Shown here piece by piece: positions 1,790-32,600 of a stretch of DNA of 64,000 nucleotides. The first letter of the stretch is position 1, and each line of letters opens with the position of its first letter. The notes below the pieces were generated by a model that was not told where the DNA came from, ran no database searches, and worked only from the letters and a program-made list of their open reading frames with translations. A program made the position numbers and the translations under genes. Source of the DNA: Lytechinus pictus (taxonomy: Eukaryota). The DNA lies in contig NC_087251.1 in the NCBI RefSeq assembly GCF_037042905.1, positions 4,714,001-4,778,000 of the forward strand, written 5' to 3'.

Positions 1790-1952
1790 CAAGCGGCGCC
1801 TTTTCCTTTCTTTCCTTTATTTTTATATTTTAAAGCAGCGCCTTTTCTTTCTTTTACTTTTCTTTTATTTTTTTTTGAGCGGCGCCTTTGGCGCCGCTCA
1901 AATATTAGGGGGGGCGCGCGCCCCCTGCGCCACCCCCCTGGATCCGCCACTG
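1790..1952. mobile_element. Right end of an hAT-like MITE (…cccctggatccgccactg)
   Basis: Same terminus as the TSD-bearing elements at 40725-41070 and 44956-45153; matching left end not found in the window. Confidence 0.6.
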
Positions 1953-4900: not shown

Positions 4901-7169
4901 ATGTTATTAGCCGTCTTGAAAAGAAGTTATTATCTCCTTTCCCTCTCAGTTTCCCAATCCTCTTGTAACCTTCTCTTCCTTTTCTTTCTTCTCAGTCTCA
5001 TTTATAAACATTTTCTATATTTTCATCATGCTATCTGTTACATTAACTTATGAAGTATTTCCCCCAAACTTACATAAAGGTTGTTAATCTAATTAAAGCT
5101 GGCATTTAGAAGCATGTACTCTACTCATTAAGACTTGACGCTACAGGTCTATACACTTACCTGTATCATAAAGTGCAATGCGAGAAAGACTAACGGTATG
5201 AAAATGCAGAAGTATTGCTGGATGCATGGAAGAGAAATGGATATACTTGATCAGTTTCTTAACACTGAATCCTAATGTAGTATTTATCGTTCTCAGGAAC
5301 TTCAGTCATCATGGATATGTTACACAAAGTACCTATATTCATAACTTAGGGCATGTAAGAAAATGTTTGATAAAATTTCGACCCAAAATGTAATCAATCG
5401 TTAATGTATAAATTCCCTAAGCTCCATTAAGACAGAATATAACAATTTGTAGTAGAATCGCTCCTTTTCTTGTTGGTGTTTTTGTTGGGGATGCCATTGT
5501 TTCCCTTATGGGGAACTTTCATCATAATGCTTCAGTCATGTCAATCACTATTTTTCCATCAAAATAAGTTTCCATATCGCAATAAGCTTATTGAAGGTAT
5601 ACATAAATGTGTGAGGATCATTCATTTATCTCTGAAGTAACCACATAACAGTCATTTCTCATGTTTCTGGCCGCTTATTTTCGATTGAGCAATGATGGCG
5701 CACTTCATATCCACTATAGATTTCATATCGAGTTATCCACATGTCCTGTGTATCATTAAAAGGCAGTCTACCCAAACCCAAATTTGGCTTTGATATAGGA
5801 GAGAGAAAAAAAAAGGGAAAAAAATCATAGTTGAAGGTATGTGAACAAATCCAGTGAAGAATAAGTGGGTTATGCATATTCAATGTATTAATTTGTGACA
5901 TCACACGCGAGCAGTTTCTTCAATATTAGACTGAACTTACCCTTTAAACACGTTTGAACAATGATGGCGCACTTCATATCCGCCTTAGATTTCACATTGA
6001 GTTATTCACTGAACGGGGGGGGGGGGGGGGGGGGGGGGTGAACGACAAGTTTAGCACTTTAGTTGTTTCTTCCCTGTTTCGTAATGTTTCTATAAATTTC
6101 AAAGTTCAGTGTTACAAACAGAGCCCTGTACATTTACCATTCACAATTGACTTTTTTTTTAAAATAGATATTGTATAACAAGTTTTGGTCAATTGCCCCA
6201 TTTCATTAACCCTTTACTACTGTCATAATCATTATCATGAGTATTATACACGGGTCAACCTGTTTTAATAGGCATTGTACAAAACTAACAAACATAAAAT
6301 AAGAAATGCATTTGCTTCCCACCAAAATAATTCAAGCCAGGTCGAAGGACCTGAGAAACGAAATTGAAGAGCGCCATCATTTGGAAAGTGTACCTTTGAA
6401 ACTACATTATTGGTGGTAAGCTTATTTTGGTAAATAAATTAATTAATCAAGAAGGGATTTTGAGGCGAAGGTATTATCCAAACGCTGTAAAAAAATAAAA
6501 AAATGAAATGAAATAATTAGCTTGGCTATTTAGAAAGGAATATAATGTAATGAACTGGGTATTCTCGTAAGGAATGGCAATTTTATTAATGATTTCGCTG
6601 GCCTTCAAACATAGTTGACCTTCTTCTGGTTTCAATATTTGCTACGATATTTACAATAAGTCATAAAAATGGAAAAGTACAAGATTCAGTTACATTTCTA
6701 CAAGAAAGAGAACCGCCCATGCATGTAGTCCATGATCCTAATTCCATGAACTGCAGTCGCCGACTATCTCGGCTGGCTCGACAACGTCAATAATTGTGTC
6801 TATGCATCATTGAATATAACCTTGATATTCATTTCGTTGACACTATCGCTTAATCTAAATCACAGCCTGTATGGACTACATCACTAATTTATCAAAATTA
6901 GCTTAATATTACTTATCAAAATACACTTGTTTGCGGGTTATTGGATACTGTGAGCACTATAAATACATGAACTAGTAAAGCTGTGCTATGTGAAAATTCC
7001 CATGCTATCTGGGACACACGTGGATACTACCGGCTATTAACTCAAATGATGTGCTAGCAAAGTCGACATGCTATTATGTCGAACTTATTGAGGTCTGGGA
7101 CTCGGCATACTATTTACTCTGTATTAGATATTGATCAGAGTGTCTTTTTATGAGGTCTTTATAAAATAA

Positions 7170-7183
7170 GTTGCCATGGAAAC
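7170..7183 (+). promoter_or_regulatory. RFX X-box (GTTGCCATGGAAAC)
   Basis: Matches the X-box consensus; strong donor GG|GTGAGT 37 nt downstream. Confidence 0.5.
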
Positions 7184-8078
7184 GCAAAAAACAATTGATC
7201 GTTTGGATTCTGCAGGTTGGGTGAGTACACATGCCTTGTATGTTTGTTAATGTACATGTATGTAAAAATGGAAATGCTGTAAGACTAGCATGTGTCTGTA
7301 ACTGACTGTCAACATGTTTTTGTTTTCATAAAACAATGTGAAACATACACATAGGAATATTATATCAACTCTTAGTCCCATGTGAAATATATTATCCTTG
7401 TTTAGATGATGGTTTCGAGCAATCATTAATTTAATGTATAATGACTAGTTATTGAAACACTGTGACTCTCTGTACATGAAGGGTAAAATCAATAGTTGTG
7501 TTTGCCGCGTCCAATTCCCATATCCCTGAATTCTGTTTAAAAATTCGGTGAATAATGTAATTGTCTCATGCATGAGCAGAGGATATCACAAAGAGAGAAG
7601 AATAATGGGGAGATAATAAACAGCTTTAATTATATCGACGTCTATCTATACCTATGTATACGAAAGTATACTATACATGTATATCAATGGCGTACCTGCA
7701 ATGTAAAACCTCGTCACGAGAGGCAAACATTTTTTTGAAGACTATAGAAGAGAGGTCGAATGTAATTTACACAAGCTATTTGTTTGTTCCGTCAAAGTAT
7801 TATTATTGGCAATTAAAGAAAAAAGTTATCACAATTCTGTCTGGGGTGAGAGGCATTCCACCCAGGCCTGTTCCCCTACCTCTTCCATCCAGTTACCTAG
7901 TGCTATAAATATGGCCTATAACAATATACTCAAAATTAATGTGCCACAAAACCCCTATACTACATGTTCGATTCATTTGCATTATACACAGACCATTTTC
8001 AGACTCGCCAACATACCGTGCAACCTACATAACTCGACAGTTGGGACCTTTCGCAAACCTCACGGACGCTAATATTAG

Positions 8079-8206
8079 GGTCCCCTAACACAAAAGTTAA
8101 AGCTTAATCATACACTTGATTTTTAAGATTGATTGTGCATTATAGTCAATAGAATCAAACGTAGAAAAGTGCTCTACAATCAATGCTAAGCTTTGTGTTA
8201 CAGGGG
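8079..8206. mobile_element. Short MITE
   Basis: cccctaacacaaa…aagctt / aagctttgtgttacagggg inverted ends. Confidence 0.5.
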
Positions 8207-8696
8207 TTACAGGCCCTACAGATCTGCGTTTCGTGAGCAAAATTCTTTCCCGCGACACCCGCACCATACATGCATGTACATTACGACTGATGGCTGGAGA
8301 TATTCGAAATGCAGGACCTACAATAGATTATGACATGGATAAGAAAGTGGTTTTTCAAACAAATCGAGTACATATTGAGTGAGGAAAAAGTTACTGAATT
8401 AAGGCTTAGATATAGATCATTACAGTCCATCGAATCGATATTGCATTTAATGTGGATTATTGGTGGATCTCTGGCAATTGATTCCATGGGTCAAATCACC
8501 TCTCCAGCAGAAACCATTTCGCATGTGTTGATTATGTACACAGCATGTATACGTCTGAACAAGGAGTTACCTTTGTCTGAACACGTACCAGCCGAAATTT
8601 CTTTTGCTTACTCCTACACAAACGATATGCCTCTAGCACACAATGTAATGGGCATTATGTTTTACTTTCCCCAAAAATGGGGATTAGATTCGAATT

Positions 8697-9013
8697 CCCG
8701 GGGGGGGGGGGGGGGCACTTCCATTGATGATTGGATACCAGGCACGACCATGCGGTTTCGAAAAGCACCCTAAACAAGGGAAGCAAGGCTTTTCCATGAA
8801 GAATATGAAAATGCATCTCTTACGAAGTATTTAGCTTGTGAAACCCTACAAGTATTGAAAACATATCCTCCTTTTCAGTATTTTAAACATCGTGTTTGAC
8901 ACCCTTATAACGTTACATAGGCCTATACGTAACGTACTTGCCCACTCTTTCCCTTTCTTTTTACGCGTGGTCGCGCCTGGTATCCACTCTTCAATGGAAG
9001 TGGGCCCCCCGGG
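8697..9013. mobile_element. MITE with CCCGGG termini
   Basis: Inverted cccggg..cacttccattga..ggataccaggc.cgacca / tggtcg.gcctggtatcc..tcaatggaagtg..cccggg. Confidence 0.7.
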
Positions 9014-9609
9014 CGGCCTCTCGAGCTCTGGGAGGAACCAAATGTGGCTTTGGTAAGTCGTCCTAAATCGGATATATCGCTGTTACCATAGTAGCAACCA
9101 GAATTTTGCACACGAAACGCAGATTGAATGTATCCGTTCCAGATGCGAAACGAAAAAAAAAAATTCATGTCACACAATTTGCATTGCAGGACAGAGTTTT
9201 ACAACCATGACGACGGGCCCAAAAGTCTCTTCCAAAATCAACTACCGTCGCAAATAAGCGTTCGCGTTCTCCAACGAAAGGTCGGGAGTACCTACGCAAC
9301 GGTTCGTTAATATGGACACATGTATTACATTGGAACGACGTATCAACAATATAAGACAATTCAGAAGCAAAATGGCCCATTATGTCCTTTATCTAGCAAT
9401 CCCACCAATGAAACTGAACAAGCTAATACGTTATTTTGAATGGCATACTACTCCTCAGATTTGTTGATGTGACTGAAATCGCGACAAACTATTTATCCTG
9501 TTATAAGTTTAAAAGGGAGCAGAATTCCAGTTGTATGGAATAGAATAATAATAACAATAAAAAAACCTATTTATTTGGCTACTCATGAATATAGTTTAGT
9601 CACGACTTA

Positions 9610-10286
9610 AGGCCTGGTCCCACTGGCCGACGGGTACAAAACGTATTCATAAAGGACACAGCGGACGAACAACATTTCGCGGGTGGCTCTATCCGTTTGT
9701 ATCCGCTCCTAAAAAGGAAAAAAAATGTGAAAAATTGGCGAAAACATAACGGAAAAGAACGGATGTAGGTAGTATGTAGCCTGGATGTTAAAAGGTTGTT
9801 CATCGGAAACCTTGCGGATGATAACACATAGAAGTGGATGACAGCTCCGAAGGGGTTGCTGGTGGATTTTGATACTTTATTTACGAGATGCATACGCTTA
9901 CATCCTTTCTATTTCCCTGCTTCTAATGATTTATAGATCTTCCAAGTACCTTATCGTTCCTCCCTTTTTCCGTTGTTCAGCTTCAGTGGATCTAAGATGC
10001 CCAGAGGACGCAGAGAGGATACAGCGGACGTTTAACGGATGATAACGGACATGGAACGTTTGTTGCTCGTATATGTTGCGGATTACATCGTACCGGCGGA
10101 AAGTTCATCCGTTCTATAATTTTGTGGAGCTCAAAAGTGTTTGCGCGGATGTAATCACAGTTGGACGGATGCTTGATGGATAGAGCGTAATTATGTGAAA
10201 CGGATGCATAGCGTTTTACAACGGATGGCAAGATTTTTTTACGCTTTACATCTGCATGCATTCGTAAGTGCAGTGGGACCGGGCCT
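9610..10286. mobile_element. PIF/Harbinger-like MITE
   Basis: TIR aggcctggtcccactg / cagtgggaccgggcct; TTA flanks. Confidence 0.75.
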
Positions 10287-10364
10287 TTAAATCAATGATT
10301 AAAGTTCAGAAATGAATACCCGAGTCTCTCGTGGATACACAAATTGAATTGTGTATGGTTATGG

Positions 10365-10540
10365 AGAGAGAAAGAAAGAGAGGCTAAGAAATAAATTATA
10401 GAGATACAGAGAGGGAAATGGATAGAGAGAGAGGGAGAGAGTCTAGAGAGAGAGTATGATAGAGAGATGGAGAGATTATGATAGAGAGAGGAGAGATAAA
10501 AGGGGAGAGATGAAGGGGGGAGAGGGTGAGAGGGGGTACA
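10365..10540. repeat. GA-rich low-complexity tract
   Basis: Direct reading. Confidence 0.85.
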
Positions 10541-13500
10541 GTCAGATGTTTGTTCACATGACACAGTGCAACTGAAACATTTTCTGTCATTTGCGATTCA
10601 CTAACTTCACATCAAAAGTAGATGATATTATTTTGTATACACTGAAAATGTCTTTTCCGAAAAAAAACTGTGTGAAAAAAATTGGCAGGCATTATCATGA
10701 TTGAAATCAGTTTATACAGTCACACTGATGTGTCGACTTCACAGGTATGAATGTGATATTATTGGCAGAGTTTGGGAATAACTCACTTCATTCAAGGTTA
10801 CTCCTTTAAAGATATCAGTATTGACTTCCTTATTGGTGTATCTAATCCCTCTTAAGGTAGAATAATTGGCATCGCACACAGGTATGACGGCAATTGGTCT
10901 ATATCACATAATATTCCCATCTCGCCTCGTTCTTCTCAAGAAGATGATGGCCGTGTTTAACCCCTGGCTTCCTTTTCAGCATTCATAAAGGTTAGCTTCG
11001 ATAGGTACCATCTTCTTTTCTGTACCTCTTTGAATGAAAGGAATTTGGTAACTCTACCATGAATGGTAACTGCGCAGAATCAAATCACAATCAAAGATTC
11101 CATGCATTGGAATCACAAGGTCTTCTCAAGCTTTGATGATCCATGTTGGCAACTGATTTCATATTCATGTTAATATCAAATTGTTTACCTGTTAGTTAGT
11201 TTAATTTCTGTCCATGTTAATCTTGATTGTTTTGTTTACTGAAAAATTGAGAATGAACAAGAAATTGAAATCTTGAGGGCAAACCAAAGTTATAATATAA
11301 TTTTGTATATAGTTGCCTTGAAATAGATTTGAAACACATCAAAATGTGATATAAGGATGACCCAAGCAACCAACTGCTTATAAAAAGTGCAGATCGTTAT
11401 ACCCCATCATTTTATGAAACATAATGCTCTTCCCTTAAAGATAAAACAAAACATGAACCGAGTCATGTCTATCACGACCCGGCTTAAAAGGAGTTTGTTT
11501 TAAACTTCTCTCTCTTGAGTAAGTATACACTGTTGAGACTCATCTTAAGTCTAAATCTGTAACACGTTACAGTATTCATTTTCAGTCTGACGTCTTGTCG
11601 ATGATATAAGAATATATACAAGTGTACCGTATTATATATTACCAGATTACAGTGTGCTAAAGTGAATTATGCTACGTATTGAAAGACATGTTAACGTGTC
11701 ATTTATCTAGAGAACGAAAATTAATCATGTTAATAGAAAGCGGTCCCATGTAGCGATTCTTACAAATTCATTATCATGTATGCTCTCGATGTCTATCGGT
11801 GCATGCATGAGAAGTGATGTAATGAAGTCGCCCATGACATATATAGAACACTGATGATTACAATTTGGCAGCTATCATGTAGGTGTCGATGATGAACAGT
11901 GCATAAAACTTTAATCTAGTCACAGCTGGGGGCAAAATAAAAGCTCCAGTCTACCCTCCGATATATTCGCCATAAACATGACAAACATCTTGTCTGGTGT
12001 GTGAGGGATCCTACGGAGCATGCCTAGTTCTGTGAAGGTACATGGAAGAGATATTCATAATCCGAAACCCGAGGAGAGTTGGGAATGAAAGGGTAAGAAA
12101 GCTAAGCCGATCAGACCCAGGACTGTAAATGGGATGTACTTCCCTCTCTGAAGTACGACACATATACATCGTTTTTAACTGGAAATGAGAAATGAGGACG
12201 ACTGATCAAAAATAGGATTGATCACTTTGTATAGGCATATAAACCACAACGGTGCATCACAGAAAAAGTCGATGATTTTTTTTTATATCTTTAGCTCAAT
12301 CGTTGTTTTAAAATTTCTATATTCATTTTTAATGTAGCTGTAAAAAATGCATTGATCAACAAACATAACTTCACTTTACATGTCTACCCCCCCCCTCTCC
12401 TCTTCCTCGCTCTAATTTATCAGTAACACGAATTAAACATCGGAGGTTATAGAGGGAATAGTTGTACACCATCTTAGTTGAATAGAATTACAAAGGTTTG
12501 AAGTCTAGAGGATAACATGCATTGATTTGAAGTGTGCCCTGATGGGAGAGGATGTCAGCTTTCTATACAAGTACCACATCTTGAGAAAAAATTAACATTT
12601 TCAAGAAGAAAGCAAAGCCCTAAGAAAAACACTGATGTCAAGGAAAGCACGGTCGTAACGCATGCAGTCCCGTCTACTTGTTTTCGAGTAATGGGCGAAT
12701 TGCTGTTGCTGGAAGATAAATTGACAGGTCGGATTGCATTGATTTTGAGAGTCAACATTGCTTATGTGTGAGTCAGAGAAAAGTATCCGAATAAAATGAA
12801 GAAAAGTATAAAAAAAAAAGTTAGGAGTGAGGTCAAACTGCTTGCCCTAAATATAATGTTAAGAATAACTTCCTGTAAAGCCAACGTCACTGTGTACGAT
12901 CCGCTATACGTTCCTGTACGAAACTGTGCCATCGTAAGCCTCTTTGTTTGAGAATAGGACTAAGAATCGGTTTTCATCGTAGCGACATCATGCGATTGAC
13001 GTGAGACCTTCTTCCACGAAAACTATATGCAGTATATTCAATTTTCAGAATCTTTTTCAGATTTCGTTAAAGGAAAAGTAAATTTTTTGAACAGTGCATA
13101 ACATTAAGAGAGTTAACTAAATAATTAGATACATAAATAGATAAATGAATAAATAAATAAATAAATAAACAAATAAATCAGTAAATGAATATATGAATAG
13201 ATAAATAAATGAAAAAAATAACAAAACAAATAAATAAATATATAGAGTATTTACCCAGGTCCTCTGCGACTATTGATTGATAGAAAACATGGTTGACGGG
13301 TCTAGATTTGCAAATGATGGATAATTGATATTGTCCCGTCCAATACGAGGATGGACTTTAGAAAGGGGAAGGATGAAGCAGTGGGTGGATACATCATTGA
13401 AGATGGAAGGAGAGGTTGTTGGCGGATTGAAGCTTAATTTGCGATCCATTGAAACCCAAGTTATTTCGGAGGATTACTATGAACTTTTGTGCAACCATTA

Positions 13501-15147
13501 ATGATTAAAGGGATATAAAATTTGCAATCGTGAAAGGGTTTGCTTATGTTTTTTAATGTTATTTGATGTTTGGTGGAACGTGAATGGAATTCTAGCTTGG
13601 GGAAAGGATACTGGACATGTCAAACTCGTGTTCTTATCTTTTGACTTATATTTTCAGATAGTGGGATTTCTAAATCTGTGAAAAACTAATCAGTAGTGTA
13701 AATACATGTACACGGTTTTATAGGGTGACTTCGTTCAAAAGTTTCCATTTGTTATCATGTGGAGAGCTGTAACTATAGTTACTCAAGTTATTCAAAGTTA
13801 TTCAGTTATCAAAGTGCCTAAAGTTAAGGATTGTAAACAGAAAGAGGCACATTGAATTTTCAAGAAAATATGAATGTTTGAATATACATCATATCTAGAA
13901 AATATTTTGAACAACCATGCAGATTAGGTGTTGACGTTGCTGGCTTTCCATAATTGTGGTTGATTGGATCAATAGCAACTCTTTTTAAGACGGGTCCCAG
14001 GTATTACACCATGTTTTATGTCGACCGTGTGTGTATACCTTTTACTTTCTGCTCATTCTTTTCGTAGACTGACTGTAATCAAGTTCAAATTTTCTTTAGC
14101 CTTATTCTATATATCTTTATCTGAGCCTCCTTTTCGATATTTCAATAAGAATTCCCTACATGTCGTTCCCCCTCACTCGCCCGTCTTTATATTTTCGACG
14201 TTTTCGAAGGATTCCCATTTTTTTTTTATCTGGCGGTCATGCTTCTCATTCGATTTTCCCACAGAGGCCTGAAAGCATCCAATTTCCTTTACCATATCGT
14301 TTAGCGATCCGGACGCACTTGACTTATTCACCTCGTCACAACCACACTGCATCTATTAAACTACCTCTTATACCATCCCATCATGCACTAAATGTAGGAG
14401 TTACATCAGACCTACATAGGAAGAACAATGTGAGGTTCGGAATAAAGAAACGTAGAAATACTTGGATTTATACTTGTAGTTATTATTAGGATGTTTCTTC
14501 ATTCCGATCTTTTTCTGATGATTCATATAATTCTTTGTTTTACAGAATAGAGCAACAAAGAATATTTATACATCAATGTGGCGACATACACACCCTACCA
14601 CACCAACATACGCGCATGCGCACCCTCACGCCCCAAGCCCATCCGCTCTCACACACACATAATATGCTTATACAAAGACAAAGTCACTCTTCAACATAAA
14701 ACTAAGAAATATTTCATTTGATATAATTTATGTGCATCCAATTTCCTTTACCATTTCGTTTAGCAATCCATTGTAGAAAGCGTCCGAAAATGCCCTAATC
14801 GCGAATTTTTCGCAACGGCGACGCTGCCGTTCTCTTCAACGCACCGATCCTTTGAAAATACAATTAAAATCACAATGGAGAACTGAGAAGCTTTTGTCGA
14901 AAGTTGGTAGACTGGGACAGCGGATCATCCGAAGATTTGTACCGGACGAACAATTGCAAACATATCCTTATCCAGAGTCACGAGACAATGCTGCTCTCCC
15001 GGTCCACCAACTTTCGACAAAAGCCTCTCAGCTCTCCATTGTGATTTGACTTGCATTTTCAAAAGAACTGGCGCGTTGTAGAGAGCGACCGCGTCATGAC
15101 TGCAAAAAACTCTCTATAAACTTCAGCTCAGAAAAGTATTGAAGCTT

Positions 15148-15711
15148 AAAAGTGACACCGTGATGTTCATATAATCATCTTGTCATGTCTACATCTCTTA
15201 GGGACAAGGATAAGATTACGAGATTTCGGATCTCCTCACGTTTACATCCCGTGTAAGAGATGATCAGATGAATCTTGTGGGAGAGATGATCAGATGACAA
15301 GATCTTGGATCTCTTCATGTCTACATCTTATAGAAGAGATGATCAAATGACAAGATCTTGGATCTCTTCATGTCTACATCTTATAGAAGAGATGATCAAA
15401 TGACAAGATCTTGGATCTCTTCATGTCTACATCTTATAGAAGAGATGATCAGAGGGCAAGATCTCGGATCCAAGATCTTGCCATCTGATCATCTCTTCTA
15501 AAAGATGTAGACATGACGAAATCCAGGATCTTGCCATCTGATCATTTCATCTTAAAGATGAAGACATGGCGAGATAAAAGATCTTGTTTTCTGATCATCT
15601 GTCGCACAATATGTAGACATGACGAGATTCAAGATCTTGTCATCTCATCTTTTCCCTTAAGAGATGTAGACGTGACGAAATGATTATATGAGCGTCTGAG
15701 TGGCACTTTTT
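15148..15711. repeat. Palindromic mini-foldback built from a 53-bp unit
   Basis: 53-bp tandem unit (gatcttggatctcttcatgtctacatcttatagaagagatgatcaaatgacaa) inverts about ggatcc at 15466-15471; outer ends are also inverted. Confidence 0.8.
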
Positions 15712-17699
15712 TTAGTATGATCGCCCATGTCAACATTAATTTCATCATAGTCAGCATTGTGTTGTGGACTGAATAATCTTTGCCAGCCCATTTGGATCGG
15801 TGATATGATAATAACCAGCCACTCTTTGAACATTCTACCAAGTGTTCATTTAAGCATATTATGTTTTACATTTGTTTTATTAGTAATAATGAAAAAAGAA
15901 ATCAATTTGATTTATTATTTGTTGTATTGATCTAGTATCGTAAAAATGTAAAGAAGAGACTTGGCCCCATTAGAATACATCGGAGGACAAGGGGGAATGC
16001 CCATTGAAAGAATTTATATCCTTATTATTTTCACCCCTCCTGACGAGGTATTATAGGTATGAGCAGAAAAATATGTTTTATTACCAGCATGATTGTGATT
16101 TTTCCTTTTAAATAAACCATATAGAATGATGAACGTAAAAATCCGATATCAGTTTCTATATATTTCCATGGATTAAAAATTCTAGTCAGTCTCTTGTAGT
16201 TGTTAGTGTTGATAAATCACACTGCACTGGCTTGGGGTTATTATCATCTTCGCTCCAATTCACGGAATCAATCAAGTGCGTGTTCAATTCAACTGTGAGA
16301 TTCCATTCCTATTTCTATCGGGGGAAAAGTGAACATAAATGTTATTAATATCGTGACGTCATTAGTCGCTTCGTTGAGCGGTGTATAGATGACTGATGGA
16401 TAATGTGGGGTTCGAGAAGGCGATGATTTATACCCCTGACTGTATTAAATCATGATGTTAGATTAGGGAGGACCGTAACTAGGACAGGGGTTGATATCCT
16501 AATGATTCACCAGACGTAAGGAAGACAACAACAGAAAAATCCCAGCAAACGAACAGACATGGTATCACGAACCTGGATAGGCTGAATGGTCGAAGTAAGG
16601 GAGGGGTTTTGATCGGGAAAATATACCCAATATTCAAATATCTAATCACCTTCCTCTCTGCAAAACCGTTATTCATTATCTATGAATAAGAAATGCTTTA
16701 CATATATATAAAAGGGGGGAAAGCAGCCATAAAGTCAAAGGAAATATTTGATTGTATCGATTATATTAGTGATATATTTGTTCATTGATAACACCTATGT
16801 TAAAGGAAACCGAACAGAAAGTTGATTTAAATAAAAAGAGAAAAATTCAAAAAGAATAAAACTGAAAATTTCATCAAAATCGGATGTAAAATAAGAAAGT
16901 TATGACTCTTTAAAGTTTCGCTTAATTTCTCAAGAAAGTTATATGCAAATCCTGGTTGGTATGCAAATTAGGGGACTGATGACGTCATCCACTCACTATT
17001 GCTTTTGTACCTTGTTATACGAAAATATTTTCTGTCCATTGTCAAGTGAACCAATGATTAATTCCTCCCTGAACATGTGGAATTAGCATTGTTTAATACT
17101 ATATGGTTCAGTGAAGTTGATCCTTATTGTATATGAGGAAAATTAGATGCCCATAAAAGCAGTATGGTAATAATGCTGATAACAATAAAAAGTGTTATTG
17201 ATATGAATATTATTATTATTATTAATATTGTTGTTATCATTATCTTTATCATTATTGTTATTATTATCATTGTTGATATATTAACATTTATTATTATTGT
17301 TGTTGTTGTCATTATCATTATTACCATTGGACTAATTTGTAAATGTTTTGGATGCGGTTTGTACCTGTCAACTTGTTTCTTTGAACGAATGCGTCACAAG
17401 ATCCATCAAGTCCCCCATACATTGAGGTCTATAAAGATTAGATAGTCATGGAAGACTACACGCTGAAAGGCATTAGAATAAACATGATGCTGAAACATAC
17501 GACCGCAGGCTTTCAGAAGATATAAACGCATCCACCAATTTTCCTAATTGACAATTGTTTGAATTATGCTACTATAAAGATTATTGAAACACGTCCAAAC
17601 CCATGGCAGCGTGGGGTATCCATCACAATATCATTATACCATCGTACAGAGTTAAATAATTCCATCAAGAGTCATGGTCATAACAATGGACAAAAATTG

Positions 17700-18673: not shown

Positions 18674-18904
18674 ATGGCTAGTCAACGGGATGCTGATGAG
18701 AGGAAAGTCAATTTTAGTTCTAATATGTCGACCAGAGACACAAGAACAAGAACGGAAGACAACAGTACAAGTGTAGGAATAGGAGCAAATAAAAACACGA
18801 GTGATACCACATCAGCGGACGATGGAGAAAGAGGAGGAGGAGAAGAAGGAGAGAGAGGCGAATGTGAAGAAGAGGAAGATGCAGTTAATGATGACGAACG
18901 AGAG
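18674..18904 (+). CDS. CNGA: CNG channel coding exon 1 (acidic low-complexity N-terminus [11 protein letters not shown]...DDERE)
   Basis: ATG preceded by an in-frame stop. 77 codons, ends GAG|gtaaac in phase 0, matching the phase-0 acceptor at 34163. No homology support, so less certain than the other exons. Confidence 0.6.
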
Positions 18905-21900
18905 GTAAACAAAATCAGATATTTTTTTTTCGTCTTTTGAATGTACTTTTAAGTACGTTTGACTTGCCGTTATTAGCTTCTCAGATTGATGTGTTTATAA
19001 TTTCGCCTGAAGTTTAAGCAAATTTTTTTTTAAATCAATGCCAATTTCTTTTCAAACTTACACCTACAACGATTTCCATGTTTAAACTACCGGAATTAAT
19101 GTTGATAATACCATGGCTTTCAGCTTTAAAAATGCATCATTAATATCAATGTCATTTAGATCATCATCATAATCATCATCATCATCATCATTTCCTCCTT
19201 CTTCTTCTTCTTATTCATCATCATCATCATCATCTTCTTCTTTGTCTTCTCCTTTCTCTTATTTTCCTCCTTCACCATCTCTATATTAAACCATCATCAA
19301 TATTACTCATCATTGCCCTTACTATTGTCAAATCCCGACAAGAGCATGTTTTAATTTCAAGCAGAATGAAATAAACGATTTTCCTCATTTGGACGAGTCC
19401 TGGACATACGAGCTGAAAACATGCCATGATTAAGGCATAATCCCGCTCCCCTGAGCTTTTCCATGAGCAGCAAATCGTACGTACGTTCGTTGATCATTTA
19501 AATCCAATTTAGTTTTCAATATTGTTTGTCTACTTAATTTTTAGAAATTGAATGCATTTGGTGTAGTCCTTCGGTTCTCTTCTCATAATTTCAACTCAGG
19601 GAATAGTGCCAGAGTACGATTGCATGTCAATGGGAAATATAACCGTTTGTCGTACAATCATTTGCAGAGTTTCAAAATTACATCCGCTCTTCAGCATTTT
19701 AATTTTTAATTTGCTGATTTAAAGAAGCTTGACATAATGTTAATAATGTAAAGCATCTCATTTCACAGACATATTATAGAAGGATTGTCATGAAAATGAG
19801 AACGATCAATGCGGAGATAAAATACCATTAGCGTCAGGCTGGCTTAAGACCATAAAATCTTGGATGCAAAACAGATTAAGGGAATAATAGGATTATTCAA
19901 CAAGAAACTCCCATCATCTCACCATGGATACCTCCAATGGTCTAACATAGATTATAATATCAGTAGGAATAGGATCTATTTATTTTCATCATTAGCATTG
20001 ACGTTCATTTCAGATCAGCGAGAAGTTCACTGGTTAAAAGGTCTTTTATCCATGTATTTCATGAACACTATTCAAGTCATATCATCAGTCATGCATCTCT
20101 CTCACTTGTCTGTTTTTCACATCTTTTCCCCCTTTCTTCATTCTATTCGACCTATTTAAGTTTTATTGCATCCAGGTTTTTAAAAAAATGTTATTTGATT
20201 ATACTAACAAATCAAACATCTTTCTCTTTCCATCTCTCTCTCCTTCTCACTTCCTCCTTTCTCTCACCCGCTCTCCCCCCCCCCTCTCTCTCTCTCTCTT
20301 CCACTCACTCCCCTCTTCTTTCTTCCTTTTCGTCTCTATAATTCTCACCCTTTCTCTCGGCACTTTCTTTTCCATCTGCATTTCCTTCTGTGTGTCTTAT
20401 TCTCCATATATATTCCTAATATTCATTTCACTTGTGTCTTATCTTGCTTTCAAATGTCTTTTCCCATCTCGGTTCTATACCATGCATGCCTTTTTTCTTA
20501 TCGTTTCTTTGAATTCCTACCCTTTTTGTGACTTGTCTGTTTTAAAGGGATTAATGCTCATCTTGTTTTATTCTATACATATTTAAATCATTTTTGAAGC
20601 GCAATGAAGGTAACGTCTCCAGTGAAAAACGCATCTTCACATTCCAGCATGTATAGTTTTAGTCAAAGCCCTATTCCCTGCAGGCTCAGCTATATTATAT
20701 TGCCATTGTAAACCTTCCAATATGACAACAAGAACAATTACCTCGTGGTTGATATCTTCGCCATATTCTTTTCATTCATAATAGATAGATACCACGTGAT
20801 TGAGCCATCAACCCCCCCCCCACCGGGTAGCGTCCATGGTTACCATCGTTTCATAAAGAAATACTGTGCCGTTTCTATGCAAGTTACCTTCATAGCTGTC
20901 CTTTATCTGGTTTCCATGCATTGCCTTCAGATTTGAGGCTCCATAGTCAATTAATATACTTATACATGATGATTATCATTTTCTTGTAGACAAGTAAAGC
21001 ACTGCCTCTATACACTGTAAAAAATATTGGGTAAAATTTTAACAAGCACGAGGGTAATTATGTGTTCAACCAATTGGGACAGTATTTTACCCAATGCGGG
21101 AAGCATATTGTCCAGTAAGGTTAAACAATAAGCAGCAATTACTTTAGAATGGGCAAAATTTTCATCACAATGGATAAATAAAAATGCCCCCTCAAATGCC
21201 CAATGTTGGTTGGACACATAACTACCCTCACGAAGCATTTTTACCCAATATTTTTAGAGTTTATTTAAACCAGTGTTTAGTCCCTGAATGAATAAAATAA
21301 AAATGGTAAATTTCATCAAGTTGATTCATCGTGAATTTTTTTTTCAAATTCGTATTATTATACATCAAGATCAGCCCTGTTGTTTCGTGCGGTACATGTA
21401 AACATGCAATAGCTGAGTAAGCGATACCTAACAACATATACGTGTGTTGAGGATAAAGCGTGAAGGTTATTAAACTAATATTCACTCAATGCAATCGTAT
21501 CAATATCAATGTTTAGTGAATGTATGAGTGTCTGAATGTGTTATTGCATATCTGTGCAAAGTTTTACTAAACTGACAGGTAAATCATTTTTGATCGAAAA
21601 ATAACCAAAAATGCGAAGAAGCTTGTATTACTCGACCGCAGGAGTGTCAACACTATAATATTGTATAGATTCTAGTACAATACGACCACACTCTAATGAA
21701 ATGTTCATTGTATTGATATTATTGTATAATTTCAATTCAATAACAATGTGTTGGTATACTCGTACAAGAAATGTCCCGTGATGATAATCTGGTTTTGATT
21801 AAAATTGTGTCAATTTAATCAGAGTAGCTTTGATTTTCACTAGCTCCTACATCATGATAAATTCACTAAAATTCAGAATATCATATACCAGTGTTTACTA

Positions 21901-24900
21901 AAATTGTCCTCGGAACAGCCATTCAAATGTTTTATATACAATTGCAAATGAGAACAAAAAACCAAAAATTCTGTGTGATTCCAGGTCAGTTTTCTGACAA
22001 AATGCGCCTGCAAAAAAACCAAAAATGTCTTGATTGACCATGTCAAGTTTGTAATCGATTTAACTTTGGTAGTGCCCATGGGATCTGCTATTCAAACAAC
22101 ATTTCAAACAACATTTTTCAACCAATGATATGCTGATATGAATTTGACGAAGACCTACCTGATTGTATTCAATATATTTTTCATTAAAATAATCATCTCT
22201 TGAAAATCCATCCATCAAGCTTAGTGAAATAAAGCAATAATACATGACAGAAATGCGAGAAGACTTTTTACAAATTTTTCTTTCAGATAATGTAATAGGC
22301 TTGTAGGATTTTAGCTTCAAGAAAAAAGCACCCGTATTAATGATTCTCTATGTTTTATTTTTGAAAATCTGATGTTTCAATCGAAAAGCGTTTACATTTA
22401 AAAAAATATATTTTTCATGTTCCTGAAAAAATAATGGCCTTGAGCATCAGGAAAATATTGACGACACCCAATCGTCGGAACTGAATAATCGTCTAAGAGG
22501 ATATCTGTTTTCATCCAAATTGCGCAAGGTGTTTGAAATGTAAACACCATCACCTCTTAGAAAATTAGAATTCATCGATTTTTGTGATGTCCTGCAAGGT
22601 TCTTATGTCTCCGGTATCCTAGCCTCAGGGGGTAAGAATGAAACAAAATGATACAGGTTAGTGGAAGAGTGTTGATAAAGATGAAATACAAAACTAGAAA
22701 GAAGGAAGATGCAACATGATCACATGAAGGGTGAAAGTAAATGTGGGAGGGGAGTAATGAACTGTATAGTAGGAAATAAGAGAATGATTGTGATTAGTAA
22801 GATTACATTATACCTATAAAAAAAACGCCTGGAAATGGTTCTAAACGAACAGGCGCAAGAAAAACTGCGTTCGGTAGTTTAGAATGAACGAATATTGTCC
22901 CCTTTGAATTATCATTTTCAATTTTTTCTCTGGGTATGATACCCGGTAAAAAAATCATCGATAATTAAAAAATTGTTAGTTCACAAATATCAAAATAATG
23001 TTGAGTGGTCTCCTAATCTATCATGTTGACACCAAACTTGATTTCGGTTGGAAAGCGTGGCAAAGATAAGTGATACAATTCAGGTGATATTGGCAATTTA
23101 CAACTAAATTTACATCCATGCCCCCATTTGTTCTATTGTCATGTTTAATCAAGGCATTAAAGTGTGATTTTGGCCGAAGTTAACATCTGTCACATTTATT
23201 CATGTCCTGTCTATGTAGGTATATATGAGGCGCCGAATGTACCAATATTATATAGAACAATTATTTGTTATATAATCATTATTTATTAAATAATAACTAT
23301 TATTTATATATAATTTACATTTTATTTGTAAATAACTACTATTATATAAAATATCATTTATAATTATTTATATATAATTCCAAGTAATACTTCATTATTT
23401 GTAAATAATAATAGTTCGACATTCCATTATTTATAAATAATGATTATTTGTTTTTCATTATTTATAAATAATGATTATTTGTTTTTCATTATTTATAAAT
23501 AATGATTATTTGTTTTTCATTATTTATAAATAATGATAATTGGTTTTTCATTATTTATAAATAATGATTATTTGTTTTTCATTATTTACAAATAATGATT
23601 ATTTGTTTTTCATTATTTATAAATAATGATTATTTGTTTTTCATTATTTATAAATAATTTGTTGAGTTTTCCATTATTTATAAATAATGATTATTTGTTA
23701 AATAATGAAAACGTCTACTTCATTATTTATAAATAATTTTTTCGAGTGCACCATTATTCTCATTATTTATAAATAATCATTATTTAATGTTCGAGTTTTC
23801 CATTATTTATAAATAAAGATTATTTGTTAAATAATGAAATATCTACTTCATTATTTATAAATAATAATTTTGTTTCAATATCCCATTAATCATTATTTAT
23901 AAACAATTTTTACAGTTTGCCATTATATACAAATAATCATTATTTGTATACAAATAACCATTATTTATTAAATAATGCCATTATTTAATAAATAATGCCA
24001 TTATTTATTAAATAATGGAAAACTCGCTATAACATGCAAATGTGGGACCGCCCATGATATGAATATTCATGATGCGATTTCCTTTTTCGTGATTTTTCTT
24101 CACAAATTTTTGTCCATTTCCTCTTCATAATGACATTTCTTGAAGCAATTTTCTAGGGATATGGTCTGATTGTAATATTCTTCATTTTCTATATAACTTC
24201 GTCTTCGTAGAAATATCAAAAAGTGTAATTTTATACGATTTTTCCTACAGTTCACAATCCCCATAGGCGCGCGTGTACGGTAGGGACAACCGGTGAATCG
24301 ACGGAGTGCTCTTCATCGAAATACTACGTTGGTTGGTCCCCGGAAGTGGCGGGCGGAATTTAGCCCGAATCCTCGATGGAAGTCGATCAAGTGCATATGA
24401 GCTGAGAGAGTGAAATATCAGTGTACTTGTACAGGCCCTTCTACTTTTTATAAATATTTCTTGTTGCTTTTTTTGTTAAGTTAATTTTTCCTGGTGTAGA
24501 GATAAGTTTCAGTTCTAATAATGCACTTCAAATACATTTTGGAGTGTCTGTTTGAGGCGTTTGGGGCGATTTCACCCTGGCCCCAAAATGCTCGCAACGA
24601 CAATACGGGGGCATGATGACCCCTAAATTTTTAAAAACTTATTTTTCTATTGAAAATTATCACAAAATTCACCAAAAGTGTGCACGAAAGCCTTCGTATT
24701 TCACTTTTAAAACTCCAAAAAGTGCCCAAATGACAAGCTTGGTCGCTTCGCTGTGTCGCTTAATTCAACTTGAGAACGTTTACGCGTCTGCTTCGATATA
24801 TCCCCCCCCCCCCCTCCTCCGAAAGAAATTCTGTATACGGCCATGCTCTAAAGAGCCTGGCACATTGATTTATGTATACTTTCATTTTCATTATTTTTAT

Positions 24901-27900
24901 CTCATTATCAACATGGCCTTACGCATAATTTTTTCCAGGGGGGCCGGGGCCGGAGCATGACGCGCGTAAACTTTCTCATAAAAATCTTGAAAAAGCGAAG
25001 CGACCAAGCTTGTCATTTGAGCTTGGTCGCGCCGCTGTCTCGCTTTCAAGATTTTTTTGAGAAACTTTACGCGTGTCCTAGCTGCCATGATGATAATGTG
25101 ATAAAAATAATGAAAATGAAAAGTACATACTATAAATCAATGTGCCATATGCTCTTTTGAGCATGGCCGTTCACAGAATTTCTTTCGGGGGGTGGGGGCA
25201 GACGCGCGTAAACGTTCTCAAGTTGAAAGCGAGACAGCGAAGCGACCAAGCTTGTCATTTGGGCTTGGTCCCGTGGCTGTCTCGCTTTCAAGATTTTTTT
25301 TGAGAAAGTTTACGCGCGTCATGCTCCGGCCCCGGCCCCCCTGGAAAAAATTATGCGTAAGGCCATGTTGATAATGAGATAAAAATAATGAAAATGAAAG
25401 TATACATAAATCAATGTGCCAGGCTCTTTAGAGCATGGCCGTATACAGAATTTCTTTCGGAGGAGGGGGGGGGGGATATATCGAAGCAGACGCGTAAACG
25501 TTCTCAAGTTGAATTAAGCGACACAGCGAAGCGACCAAGCTTGTCATTTGGGCACTTTTTGGAGTTTTAAAAGTGAAATACGAAGGCTTTCGTGCACACT
25601 TTTGGTGAATTTTGTGATAATTTTCAATAGAAAAATAAGTTTTTAAAAATTTAGGGGTCATCATGCCCCCGTATTGTCGTTGCGAGCATTTTGGGGCCAG
25701 GGTGAAATCGCCCCAAACGCCTCAAACAGACACTCCAAAATGTATTTGAAGTGCATTATTAGAACTGAAACTTATCTCTACACCAGGAAAAATTAACTTA
25801 ACAAAAAAAGCAACAAGAAATATTTATAAAAAGTAGAAGGGCCTGTACAAGTACACTGATATTTCACTCTCTCAGCTCATATGCACTTGATCGACTTCCA
25901 TCGAGGATTCGGGCTAAATTCCGCCCGCCACTTCCGGGGACCAACCAACGTAGTATTTCGATGAAGAGCACTCCGTCGATTCACCGGTTGTCCCTACCGT
26001 ACACGCGCGCCTATGGGGATTGTGAACTGTAGGAAAAATCGTATAAAATTACACTTTTTGATATTTCTACGAAGACGAAGTTATATAGAAAATGAAGAAT
26101 ATTACAATCAGACCATATCCCTAGAAAATTGCTTCAAGAAATGTCATTATGAAGAGGAAATGGACAAAAATTTGTGAAGAAAAATCACGAAAAAGGAAAT
26201 CGCATCATGAATATTCATATCATGGGCGGTCCCACATTTGCATGTTATAGCGAGTTTTCCATTATTTAATAAATAATGGCATTATTTAATAAATAATGGC
26301 ATTATTTAATAAATAATGGTTATTTGTATACAAATAATGATTATTTGTATATAATGGCAAACTGTAAAAATTGTTTATAAATAATGATTAATGGGATATT
26401 GAAACAAAATTATTATTTATAAATAATGAAGTAGATATTTCATTATTTAACAAATAATCTTTATTTATAAATAATGGAAAACTCGAACATTAAATAATGA
26501 TTATTTATAAATAATGAGAATAATGGTGCACTCGAAAAAATTATTTATAAATAATGAAGTAGACGTTTTCATTATTTAACAAATAATCATTATTTATAAA
26601 TAATGGAAAACTCAACAAATTATTTATAAATAATGAAAAACAAATAATCATTATTTATAAATAATGAAAAACAAATAATCATTATTTGTAAATAATGAGA
26701 ATAATGGTGCACTCGAAAAAATTATTTATAAATAATGAAGTAGACGTTTTCATTATCTAACAAATAATCATTATTTATAAATAATGGAAAACTCAACAAA
26801 TTATTTATAAATAATGAAAAACAAATAATCATTATTTATAAATAATGAAAAACAAATAATCATTATTTGTAAATAATGAAAAACAAATAATCATTATTTA
26901 TAAATAATGAAAAACCAATTATCATTATTTATAAATAATGAAAAACAAATAATCATTATTTATAAATAATGAAAAACAAATAATCATTATTTATAAATAA
27001 TGGAATGTCGAACTATTATTATTTACAAATAATGAAGTATTACTTGGAATTATATATAAATAATTAGAAATGATATTTTATATAATAGTAGTTACTTACA
27101 AATAAAATGTAAATTATATATAAATAATAGTTATTATTTAATAAATAATGATTATATAACAAATAATTGTTCTATATAATATTGGTACATTCGGCGCCTC
27201 ATAGGTATAGAGATGCTTTTGTGAGACCATCTGAAGGCCGCATCAGTACGTCAGTGATAAGATTGAATGAAATCATAACAGAGTATATTCATTTATTCAT
27301 GCGGTTCCGAGGGATGTCTATGAAATGAGAGCCAAGGGAACAGACATTGAACGAGAGGAACGACCGAAAATATAATAACAAAAAAACATCGAGAATACAA
27401 ACCATGTCTGAAAAGGAATGGAAAATATTGGTGATGTAGTATAATCATAACCATAATTGTAAAAAGAAATTGAAAATCATCAAACTCCGTCATAGAGAAA
27501 GTTACGGGGTGGGGTTAAGTCATCTAAATAATTTCATCTCACCCCAAAAGAAAACGTGTTCTGTTAATGACATGCAAATTTTCTGTATTGTACTTCTGAG
27601 ATCTACCACATTATGAATTCTTAGATATTATTACATTATTTCCCAAATTTCTGAGCAGATAAATAAAGCATTTGATAGCGATGCAGGCTCGGGGATTGTG
27701 TTTGTTGGATTTGAGTTATTTTGTTGTTGTTATACATGCATAATTCCCTAGGATCTTTTTTAAAAGAATACCGAGCTCCGATTCCGACTCACTGATAGTT
27801 GTACATCAAGGTAAGTTGCAAGGGTCAAGTTCAAATTATATATCTCATCTCGTTGACCTTATACCTTATACACCGTTATTTTGAATATTTTTTTATCAAC

Positions 27901-29522
27901 ACAAGAAAAAGTACTTCCCTTCGATTCCAAATATGGTTATTCATTAAACATATTAAAAAGTGTAGCCTAATTAACAGACACTGGTTTTCACTGGGGCCTT
28001 TTCGTAAGAATAAAAAGTAAATATACATATACATACAAACAATAAGATACATGAGTAAAGATTAAAACTATATACATATTACGCAACTATGTGTTACAAG
28101 ATACAATGTGAAGGTGAATGTTTAAACAAAATCTAAGAAAACTGCATGGGTGGAAACAGAAAAGGGTTGGTTAACTATAGTCTGACAAAGAGCAAACAAT
28201 GATAATATAGCTCAAATTGATAACATGAAAGACTGACTTAATCAACTGTGCACTATCAATTCATGAAATAAAGAAATAAAATTGTACAATAATACAAAAT
28301 TACCTGAACTAATGCAAAGGAAAAACTTTTTAGTTGAATGAAACCGGGATAAGTAACAATGTGAAGGAAAACGAGAATTATCAAAGTGCTTTCAGATCAT
28401 TTTTAATGCATCAAGATTAGGGGAACGTCGAAGTTCAACTGTGAAAATATTCCAATGTGCTATGCCCGCAATGTCAAATAACTGTATTCGGTTTTATATC
28501 TATCTGCATGTTACAATTTCCGTTAAGATTGGGCGTTGCCCGTACTGCTGCACCATCATAAAGAGTAATCTTTTTGCCAGAATTGAGGGAACTAGTTTGT
28601 GAATACATTTAAAGACCTTAGATAATCATGATTTTGTTTGCTTTTCCTGAAGAGAATACAATATTACCCTTCAAAGAAATGATTTTATACTATACGCGTA
28701 TTTATCTTCACTCATTGATTAACTTTTGTGTGAAAAGGGTGCAAAATTAAAATAAAACTGACTCGCAGGAGTCATATTCTGCAAAAATAAAAGTAAATAG
28801 TACTGATGTTAACTTAATATACTCTAATCATAAGCCTGCTCACTATGGCGAAAATAGTCAATATGGCGTGGTTTGCCAAATGAAAAGAAGACCATCCGCC
28901 ACTCGTCAGTTATGATCATCTCTCACATAAACAAAGGATATGAAGATATATTTTCCTGAAAAAAGATCTTCTTTTTGCAGTAGATCTAATAGATATTAAT
29001 TTTCAAAATTTATGAATGATTATTTCTTACCTTATCGAGCTCATGATGATTTGACAGAAGAATCACGTTTCCAAAAATATTTTATTCATCACGAGTGAAG
29101 GAAAATTACTTGATCAAAACAGTTTCCCAAAAATTTATGTAAACATGTTGAGTTTGCGTAAGGTAGTTTCAGATCTACGAAAGATGTGAAATCTAGTTAC
29201 TTGCTTGGTTTTTTTATGAATCCAGTTTTGAGGGGATTCATTGTCCAAAGAAAGAACATTATTCACGAAGAAAGCGCATGTGATAGGTCCTTGTTTTTAT
29301 TCAAACCTATCTCTCTATAACATCATGCCTTGCGACAAATTAATGTACTGACTATCTAAACAAGATGTTAAACTGCTTTTTATGAATTTATGTTTACTGT
29401 GATTACATCACTTTCCTATGAAATAACATTGCCATTAAAAGGGTCTGTTAACAATATTTTCTCCCTCTTCTCTCTCCCTCACTCCTTCTCACCCTCTCTC
29501 TCTCTCTCTTTCTCTTTCTATT

Positions 29523-29693: not shown

Positions 29694-32600
29694 AATGTGT
29701 GAAGTTATACATGTACTACAGCTTTGACAACTCTTTTTATTTAAATATTGTAAAGAAATGGATGAAGAGAACAATGGTAGGCGTAGCTTAAATCAAGGTT
29801 CCCCAGAGCTATCTACCCTTTTTGGAAAAATTGGTGATGCCGAAAAAATGCCCCTGCCGGGAATCGAACCCGGGCCCCCAGCTTTGAACGCCGGTGCCTT
29901 AACCACTAGACCACAGAGACGGGTCAGTGGCTAGGGCGACCCCGATCCGATTGACCGTCAGATAGGGGCATTTTTTCGGCATCACCAATTTTTCCAAAAA
30001 GGGTAGATAGCTCTGGGGAACCTTGATTTAAGCTACGCCTACCATTGTTCTCTTCATCCATTTCTTTACAATATATATATATATATATATATATTACCGT
30101 CCCACACTCCCAGTCACTTTCACAGCATGCCCATCAACGTTGTAAGATTTCAAAATGGTCGTCATTATTTCATTATGTAATAGGATAAGATACATGCACA
30201 GCATCAATATTTCTACATCAGAATCTCAACATACGTTGCTATGTAGGTCATGCCTGTAGTAGTTTGCAATCCAGATAAGACGTTAACTTATTGAATTTGT
30301 ATATTATGTTTCTAATTAAATCTTCAGACAAACGCCCGTTGGCGATGGATGATTGGGCTCGTAGAGGTAGGTAGATTCCCCATCATCCATTTTCTTAATT
30401 TTCACAAATCCCTGTCATCCACGAGATATATTTTTCTCGACTATAAAATACAAGGTACAAAGGGGAAAAGCTCTATGTATATTCTGTTCATTGGATCTGC
30501 ACGGATATTAGCTGGGATTTCGAAGGCCGTCTATCAATCTATATAATTGGTGTCGTATTTATAGATGTTTCCAGTGCAGAAAACAATGATTTCTTGTACA
30601 CGCCTTTGATCATATTGAAGAGCTAGTACGTGTTGTCATGTTGGGTTAGGATTTTTTATATTTTTGATAATGTACTGTGTTCAATCGTTTTCTCCAAATT
30701 GTTCAAAAATGAATGTAGAAATATGATTTTATATATCTGAGTGTGATAGTCGTTCTCATGGTATTCTTTGGATGCTATCATAAACTTATCAGTTGAGAGA
30801 TATTCTTAATTTTTGTTATCAATTAAAGGCAAATTTGACTTCACTCAATTGTGTTTGTACATCTATATCTGATTTTACATGGCACTTTAATCAACAAGTG
30901 CGTCTACACTAAAAAACAAATCAGTAAAAAATGACTAGTTAATAGGGTCAGGTGGGTGCCACTGTTATTATAGTCATATTTGACAGTTTTCTAGTCGTAT
31001 TTTACTAGAACAGAGTTAATTCTAACTAGAATTTATGTCAGAAATGTGACTAGCACATCAGTTGCACCCAGCTGACTACTTGTCTAGTCAATTTGACAGA
31101 TTTGTTTTAAGAGTGTAGGAAGAAATATGTCAAGTCTGTAAAAAATTAAATATTATATAATTCAAACAATATAAAAACAAGAGAAATAGAGAGTGGGGGA
31201 AATCGTCAACCCTCTCATTTTCATGTCACTGGATTGTGCATTTAAAAATGTTGTGAAAAATAACATGAACTATAAAATGTCATAACTTTCTTATTTTATA
31301 TTCGAAATTTTCAACATTATGCTTGTTTGATTTTTCTCTTTCAATTCAAAATCATCTTTTTTCGGGGTAGACGTGACGGTCGCATATATAAATGTTGAAA
31401 GACAAACTTTAAAAGGGAAAATCTCTAAATGTTTTTTTATGAATTATCCAAAAAAATTCTGATTAGCAGTAGTAAATCATTTTGTTTTAAATGAAGCCAA
31501 TGATTTAGATTTAAGTATTTAAGATTCAAATTCAAAATATATAGTTTGGTTGGTCACGTACTATATAGCTATATTTCACCCCGTGGTTACTCTGTATTCG
31601 GTTTTTATTTACAGTCATAATAGGCTCATTGTCTCATCATAATATTAATATCCATGATTCCAGGGCCATGATTACAGCCATGAGAACTCCGACATACAAT
31701 AAACATTCAGTCATGTTTTATTTTTATACTTCTTATGAAGCATAGCTTATGATCCTAAAAGGGGGGCAATCAATATTCATGCATGCGAAACAAAATATGC
31801 ATAAATTCAGACAATACAACGTTATAACCGCATCATCGTAAACCGACAAAGTATATATATGTCTTGTATAACATGTAGGATATGAAAACTATACCATACA
31901 TGTCATAGACAGTGGCAAATAATTGATTACTATTACTACTGGTGATAATATCAATTCATTTCGTGTGAGGTGATGTGTAAACCCGAACTGTTTTCTTTAG
32001 GCTATATACGGCTGGTGGACACCTCACGACTCGTGAAATAATGATGGAGTTATGGTAGATCGACGGAGAAAGGTTAGAGTTACACACCTAGAGGCTCGTT
32101 CAAAACTGTTTTGACGCCGAAAAACAAGGCAATTTTACTTGTGAATACGCTTGCGATATGAGTTCCTGATCAATCCGCCATCTTGTAAATGCCCGTTGAG
32201 CACATTATGAACTACACGGTAAAGAGGGGGGGGGGGGGGGGTAATCAAGCACCTAAATACACAACAATGGTTTTAGCGAGTTTCAGGCACTTTGAGCCAT
32301 AGTATTCAGATACCTGATGACTGTCATTTGCGAGAGATTTTGTCAGTCATATTTTTAAGCAATGGGTTATTCATTAATCAATGAAGAAGGGGTGGTGGAT
32401 GGTAAAGGACAAAATGATATTTTCGTGTGTTTTATTCGAAACTTAACAGGAATGAGCTTCTTTATCACATTCTTAATAACTAGTTATTGCAAGTATCTCT
32501 TCTATAAATTATGTTGAGATCACTTTACATCAGACCTTTCGTCTAATTATTCAGCTTCATTCATCATGCATGAACTTACCCCATATCCATCCCTATCATC

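Follow-up and report, generated by a model that had tools for sequence, protein, structure and literature searches.

How does a piece of animal DNA come to hold a palindrome of about 4 kb whose halves are almost identical, which enzyme brought it there, and what becomes of the RNA copied from it? The question is raised by a locus of the sea urchin Lytechinus pictus (RefSeq assembly GCF_037042905.1, contig NC_087251.1, positions 4,714,001 to 4,778,000), analysed as a window of 64,000 nucleotides, which is the whole stretch to which the coordinates below refer. An earlier note, made from the letters alone, had described positions 23224-27203 as a near-perfect foldback element. We consider it fairly likely that this element is a young non-autonomous cut-and-paste transposon, made almost entirely of terminal inverted repeat and moved by an IS3EU/GingerRoot enzyme, and that its RNA is edited by ADAR.

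The palindrome itself is confirmed by self-comparison. The element is 3,980 bp long and consists of two inverted arms around a 324-bp spacer, the left arm measuring 1,754 bp and the right arm 1,902 bp by self-alignment, and the arms make up 92% of the element. A plain alignment of one arm with the other gives 6 mismatches and three gaps, and a segment-wise comparison leaves 3 substitutions (23332, 23360, and 23988 in the left arm) once three indels are allowed for. Relative to the left arm, the right arm has one 31-bp unit fewer, an extra 181-bp duplication, and a G run that is 2 bp shorter. The largest gap-free block shared by the arms is 1,237 nt with 2 mismatches, and identity is unbroken over at most 824 nt. 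Each arm is also bipartite, as had been described: the outer part (23224-24019) has a GC content of 15% and carries 31- and 20-bp tandem repeats, whereas the inner domain has a GC content of 38-45%. The parts of the element and its borders are as follows.

23218-23223, + strand: left copy of the target-site duplication, GGTATA, read from the sequence, its boundary given by loose ends at 23224
23224-24977, + strand: left arm, a terminal inverted repeat of 1,754 bp that starts with TATGAGG (self-comparison)
23224-23390, + strand: AT-rich domain at the terminus, present in many copies in four public runs, with RNA reads rich in A>G/T>C (run alignments)
23391-24019, + strand: outer tandem domain, with about ten 31-bp units, derived units, and three 20-bp units; 15% GC (repeat search)
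24020-24723, + strand: non-repetitive inner domain (sequence composition)
24724-25553, no strand: central array of self-complementary units of about 205 bp (Y) and spacers of about 70 bp (S), from self-comparison and folding; its parts are the next six lines
24724-24911, no strand: mirrored half-Y and S
24912-25089, no strand: Y1
25090-25161, no strand: S1
25162-25367, no strand: Y2
25368-25433, no strand: S2
25434-25553, no strand: half-Y
24978-25301, no strand: 324-bp spacer between the exact arms, where partial pairing persists via Y1/Y2 (self-comparison, folding)
25302-27203, - strand: right arm of 1,902 bp, which finishes with CCTCATA (self-comparison)
26485-26846, + strand: 181-bp tandem duplication, in the right arm only (repeat search, self-comparison)
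27204-27209, + strand: right copy of the target-site duplication, GGTATA (sequence)

The duplication in the right arm had been announced as about 180 bp near 26700-26880. It is present, with copies at 26485-26665 and 26666-26846, and occupies a wider stretch than claimed. Its two copies show 6 differences, more than the 3 that separate the whole arms; the duplication may predate the insertion at this site or come from another copy of the element.

Such a structure could in principle be an assembly artefact, due either to a fold-back read or to polishing that made the arms alike, since polishing is able to raise their apparent identity. No read reaches from one side of the element to the other, and at most 0.24 of the words of 21500-28900 are found in any of the 24 public runs listed. 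However, a fold-back read would require mirrored flanks, and the sequences on either side of the element are unique and not mirror images of each other. The perfect direct repeat GGTATA is found at both ends (a 6-mer would match by chance with a probability of about 5e-4), three indels and three substitutions separate the arms around an asymmetric spacer, and the same terminus is joined to other flanks in independent runs. An artefact is thus very improbable.

The other copies also define the true ends. The 24 runs were listed by word sharing, and 4 of them were aligned to the left flank and the outer 167 bp; the alignment tables hold 40 of 113 rows of differences, the best 14 of 51 rows of loose ends, and 12 of 161 pieces. 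DNA run X9 contributes 154 aligned contigs. On the flank their depth is 65-166 with about 6% other letters, which indicates that X9 stems from a close relative or else from a divergent individual. On the terminus, the depth rises to 1,889-17,250, a figure that is not a copy number. Loose letters precede 23224 in 21 X9 contigs and agree at 0.41, showing mixed flanks. A single contig of run X2 starts exactly at 23224, a contig of run X1 has a foreign flank before 23223, and 31 reads of RNA run X23 have foreign flanks before 23223 or 23224. The element thus belongs to a family dispersed over many insertion sites, its outer 167 bp meeting many different flanks in X9 and X23. Since contigs and reads break at 23223/23224 and, among the best 14 of 51 loose-end rows, none breaks at 23225-23226, the ends are symmetric (TATGAGG at the left, CCTCATA at the right, that is TAT…ATA at 23224 and 27203) and the duplication is 6 bp long. 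The two lengths once proposed for it are thereby separated: the 6-bp GGTATA stands, and the 8-bp asymmetric reading is disfavoured.

The insertion site is probably empty in the close relative X9, on moderate evidence: the X9 flank contig aligns no further than 23223 and there is no filled junction, this contig being the only one at 23160-23199, at a depth of 70, where a coverage hole proves nothing. The 3-letter overhang of the same contig was considered as a sign of an empty site and found uninformative, three other X9 records ending alike. Position 23354 is A in all X9 contigs (26) and T in the window, X1, and X2; it is a lineage-diagnostic site within the family. X1 and X2 bear other organism codes and contain the terminus with 1 difference and without flank. 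This was rejected as evidence of horizontal transfer, because low-depth DNA of the host species would look identical. Within the window there is no other copy: the terminal 10-mer matches twice, at the element's own ends, and blastn gives no long match outside the element. In metagenome contigs, exact-pattern scans retrieve 0 stretches for the terminus and 0 for the Y core, and viral contigs give 1 match to a 17-mer, taken as chance.

Which transposase would recognize such ends? IS3EU elements end in TA..TA and usually duplicate 6 bp of the target (PMC10045372), and the fungal IS3EU families, to which the consensus TAYGG..CCRTA belongs, have terminal TAYGG and inverted repeats “longer than 30 bp” (PMC12730594). 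GingerRoot, which is defined by TA..TA alone, shows these ends in 72 of 77 copies, with 6-bp duplications and inverted repeats of 100-150 bp (PMC6839031). The structure of IS3EU has been called largely unexplored (PMC11934779). The present element has both the TA..TA termini and, in the one complete copy (1/1), the 6-bp target-site duplication. It also has the features of a foldback: long inverted arms, a tandem outer and a non-repeating inner domain, dispersed copies, an arm length that differs with the number of tandem units (1,754 vs. 1,902 bp), and a non-coding middle. From the sequence, it is a young non-autonomous foldback element combining foldback structure with an IS3EU/GingerRoot end signature. 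We infer membership of this family from the ends, because no transposase is linked to them and hAT6 also makes 6-bp duplications.

Indeed, the same foldback could have been moved by another 6-bp transposase such as hAT6 (PMC12730594), or by a Mutator- or P-type enzyme if the ends have been misread. Most foldbacks are Mutator-like with 8-10 bp duplications (PMC4079207, PMC3169594), Galileo being the P-type exception (PMC4168063), and a 10-bp duplication with 1 mismatch can be read on a single copy. The loose ends nevertheless place the terminus at 23224 and thereby rule out duplications of 8 or 10 bp, and the 8-10 bp duplication of Mutator-type foldbacks (Tetris, Tm1) is replaced by 6 bp here. 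The terminus begins with TAT like IS3EU. The usual hAT terminal start is YARNG, which TATGA does not fit; a literature search for hAT6 ends gave no usable source. Polinton/Maverick elements likewise make a 6-bp duplication, with AG..CT simple-repeat ends where TA..TA is found here. Another enzyme is therefore unlikely, and IS3EU/GingerRoot remains the preferred assignment. The resemblance to TU and FB foldbacks, put forward earlier, holds for the architecture; kinship by mechanism is not supported, the 6-bp duplication and the TA..TA ends fitting IS3EU/GingerRoot.

The centre of the element bears on how the mirror arose. The mirrored S0 is identical to S2 (66/66). S1 and S2 are direct homologues (62/66) and the Y1 and Y2 loops share one orientation, which makes head-to-tail the native order of the array. 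The left arm mirrors the right arm exactly as far as 25302, within Y2, and enters Y1 at 24977/24978. In Galileo, internal sequence is recruited into the arms (PMC4168063). In the mechanism that we propose, an integrase-like transposase of IS3EU/GingerRoot type, encoded elsewhere, would bind the TATGAGG ends, possibly with the subterminal repeats assisting, and the element would have been inserted with a 6-bp stagger. The arms would have grown by copying: at a centre formed by the head-to-tail array Y1-S1-Y2-S2-half Y, a switch of template within a palindromic unit, or a conversion tract ending there, would have joined the left arm to Y1 at the matching point.

A different history is that a family transposon with short ends inserted here and that the long palindrome formed in place, full-length mirror copies being rare. 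The inner 958 bp of the arms show 0 differences (upper 95% bound 0.3%) vs. 2 in the outer 198 bp (p=0.03), the X9 depth drops inward across the terminus from 17,250 to 3,211, and the arm junction lies inside a self-complementary unit, all of which would suit such a history. However, the high load of A>G/T>C changes in reads of other loci, described below, requires paired arms or antisense RNA there, and over the terminal 167 bp the contigs of X1 and X2 depart from the element at 1 position. Formation in place is quite unlikely, and we retain the insertion of an element that already consisted mostly of arms. As for its age, comparison with the X1/X2 contigs gives one private base in the left arm (23360) and one in the right arm (27095), so the outer ends are not kept identical; an assembly error may lie behind these private terminal bases. 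Recent insertion and ongoing homogenisation had both been suggested. The young insertion stands as the simplest reading, homogenisation is not supported at the termini (one private substitution per arm), and recent copying of the inner arm is possible.

The arms have direct consequences for RNA. Their duplex can contain 1,749 pairs, and the centre folds at -689 kcal/mol, vs. -242 for 20 shuffles. Read-through RNA of the copy at 23224-27203 would form a duplex of about 1.75 kb and be hyper-edited by ADAR, as appears to be the case for the family in the raw reads of X23 (about 6% of the run read, 8.7 million records). Forty of these reads align, of which 32 are less than 95% alike to the element. 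Changed places are A>G or T>C in 37 of 42 cases (16 A>G, 21 T>C), vs. 25 of 84 in the DNA of X9 (p=3e-10), and in 37 of 41 vs. 25 of 56 if only changes from A or T are counted (p=4e-6), the X9 count taking in flank differences and the changed places not being independent. Both kinds of change are expected because both arms map onto one reference. Two clipped groups (4 and 3 reads) are element sequence of 30 letters in which T>C is the sole kind of change: it affects 11 T in one group and 10 in the other, out of 17, and 0 of the 13 letters that are not T, at sites partly different between the groups. No edited A has a 5′ G. In Strongylocentrotus purpuratus, repeats contain 86% of editing sites, with a preference for young repeats and DNA transposons and a bias against a 5′ G (PMC9989829). 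The reads of this one run point to ADAR hyper-editing of family transcripts, and the prediction of a double-stranded RNA (dsRNA) edited by ADAR is upheld at the family level only. Metabolic labelling or global deamination was considered as a source of T>C and, with about 60% of T changed in the clipped parts, is unlikely by inference, because the consensus letters of the flank retain A and T. A literature search on editing in Lytechinus returned nothing specific.

Several points must be set against the interpretation as a whole. The other copies may not be full palindromes, as the outer 167 bp only were compared, and one complete copy, hence one target duplication (1/1 = 6 bp), is seen. Letters three to five of the terminus are TGA and not YGG, TATGA matching the fungal TAYGG at 4 of 5 positions; no transposase is tied to the element ends; and hAT6 shares the duplication size. 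The RNA evidence consists of 40 reads from one run, without matched DNA of the same animal, and the RNA and DNA runs bear different organism codes. The strand of individual changes is not resolved in the X23 reads. Finally, the RNA depth is 0 at 23160-23199, and no X23 read crosses the element's own junction.

Concerning coding content, the element contains 12 stop-to-stop frames of at least 60 codons. Seven of the 12 were scanned against Pfam and none reaches the cut-off (best E 0.024); on these seven, the element encodes no recognisable protein, in keeping with the earlier statement that it has no transposase open reading frame. The mirror-image frames described at the same time exist, with 134 and 97 codons, and part at the poly-G. 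An Rfam search gives no match inside the element. The inner domain contains the inward-facing motifs CCGGAAGT at 24340, GGGCGG at 24351, and TATAAA at 24449, with an ETS-like motif and a GC box among them. They stand in promoter-like order at 24340-24454 (+ strand) and are mirrored near 25823-25937 (- strand), thus in both arms, and this stretch is CpG-rich (observed/expected 1.27 vs. 0.84 for the window). A promoter role is a guess made from the motifs; the two arms may in this way add convergent transcription.

The element had been located in intron 1 of a CNG channel gene. For one channel exon, the best of 68 matches, at 98% identity, is a CNG alpha-3-like protein of Lytechinus variegatus (P0001), which marks the host as a Lytechinus-like sea urchin. 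The gene is laid out as follows.

18674-18904, + strand: candidate first coding exon of a putative long CNG isoform, whose phase-0 GT donor fits the acceptor at 34163
30349-30366, + strand: first coding exon of the short CNG isoform, downstream of the element; 5 of 6 residues match P0001, followed by a GTAGGT donor
34163-62841, + strand: remaining CNG channel exons, in 14 tblastn blocks covering P0001 residues 5-486, the blocks beginning at 34157

Compared with a starfish N-terminus, the exon at 18674-18904 gives a weak match (9/16, E=0.87). Because the first exon of the short isoform is downstream, the element would be intronic only for the putative long isoform starting at 18674; the location in intron 1 is appropriate for that isoform and not for the closest database isoform. 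The two candidate alternative first coding exons stand one on each side of the element.

Elsewhere in the window, a tRNA-like Rfam match of 55 bits at 29849-29920 (- strand), just past a long (TA)n run, is possibly the head of a short interspersed nuclear element. Inverted arrays of a common 15-bp unit are found at 49914-50114 and 51236-51335 (13.4 and 6.7 copies), about 1.1 kb apart. At 474-1667, tandem repeats form a complex array in which periods of 20, 41, 123, and 350 bp are nested, and an array of a 53-bp unit at 15272-15681 possibly represents the subterminal repeats of another transposon.

Compared with known systems, the element shares with IS3EU/GingerRoot the TA..TA ends, the 6-bp duplication, terminal inverted repeats, and an aquatic animal host (PMC10045372, PMC12730594, PMC6839031). 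In contrast, its arms are 1.75-1.9 kb long, compared with 100-150 bp in GingerRoot and “longer than 30 bp” in fungal IS3EU, it has no transposase gene, and its terminal letters depart from TAYGG. Tetris of Drosophila virilis is similar in having arms that reach 1,735 bp and are divided into flanking, tandem outer, and inner domains, a non-coding middle, and no autonomous partner found, but it is a Mutator element with 8-10 bp duplications and a tandem unit of about 220 bp instead of 31 bp (PMC4079207). Copy 112 of Galileo in Drosophila willistoni likewise has nothing but two long arms, 4,246 and 4,680 bp, whose lengths differ because of tandem repeats and which grow by recruitment of internal sequence; Galileo belongs, however, to the P superfamily and makes 7-8 bp duplications (PMC4168063). 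By description, the element resembles TU of Strongylocentrotus purpuratus in its sea urchin host, its long arms, and its tandem outer and non-repeating inner domains. TU1 differs from it in duplicating 8 bp of target, in having an outer unit of 15 bp, and in a middle segment of greater length. The element is also like the edited young repeats of S. purpuratus, with the difference that the substrate here would be a single self-pairing element and not two neighbouring copies (PMC9989829).

The foldback structure is thought to have arisen independently in several transposon superfamilies, of which Mutator and P are named (PMC4079207). Foldback architecture and the editing of young repeats are thus known phenomena; in the literature searched, which lay outside Repbase and subscription journals, no paper links foldback arms to IS3EU/GingerRoot ends. 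If true, a foldback with such ends adds a little-studied integrase-like superfamily to the origins of foldbacks. A broader idea is tentative and, on balance, doubtful: that a sea urchin IS3EU/GingerRoot system moves “all-arm” elements whose kilobase palindromes are self-made, through template switches at self-complementary modules that they have captured. Each transcribed insertion would then be a complete, nearly fully edited ADAR substrate; for echinoids, these elements would rank among the main sources of endogenous dsRNA, and foldbacks would have a new way to arise. In any case, the centre of the element keeps a readable record of arm copying, and the family is a ready test system for the handling of long dsRNA in an echinoderm.

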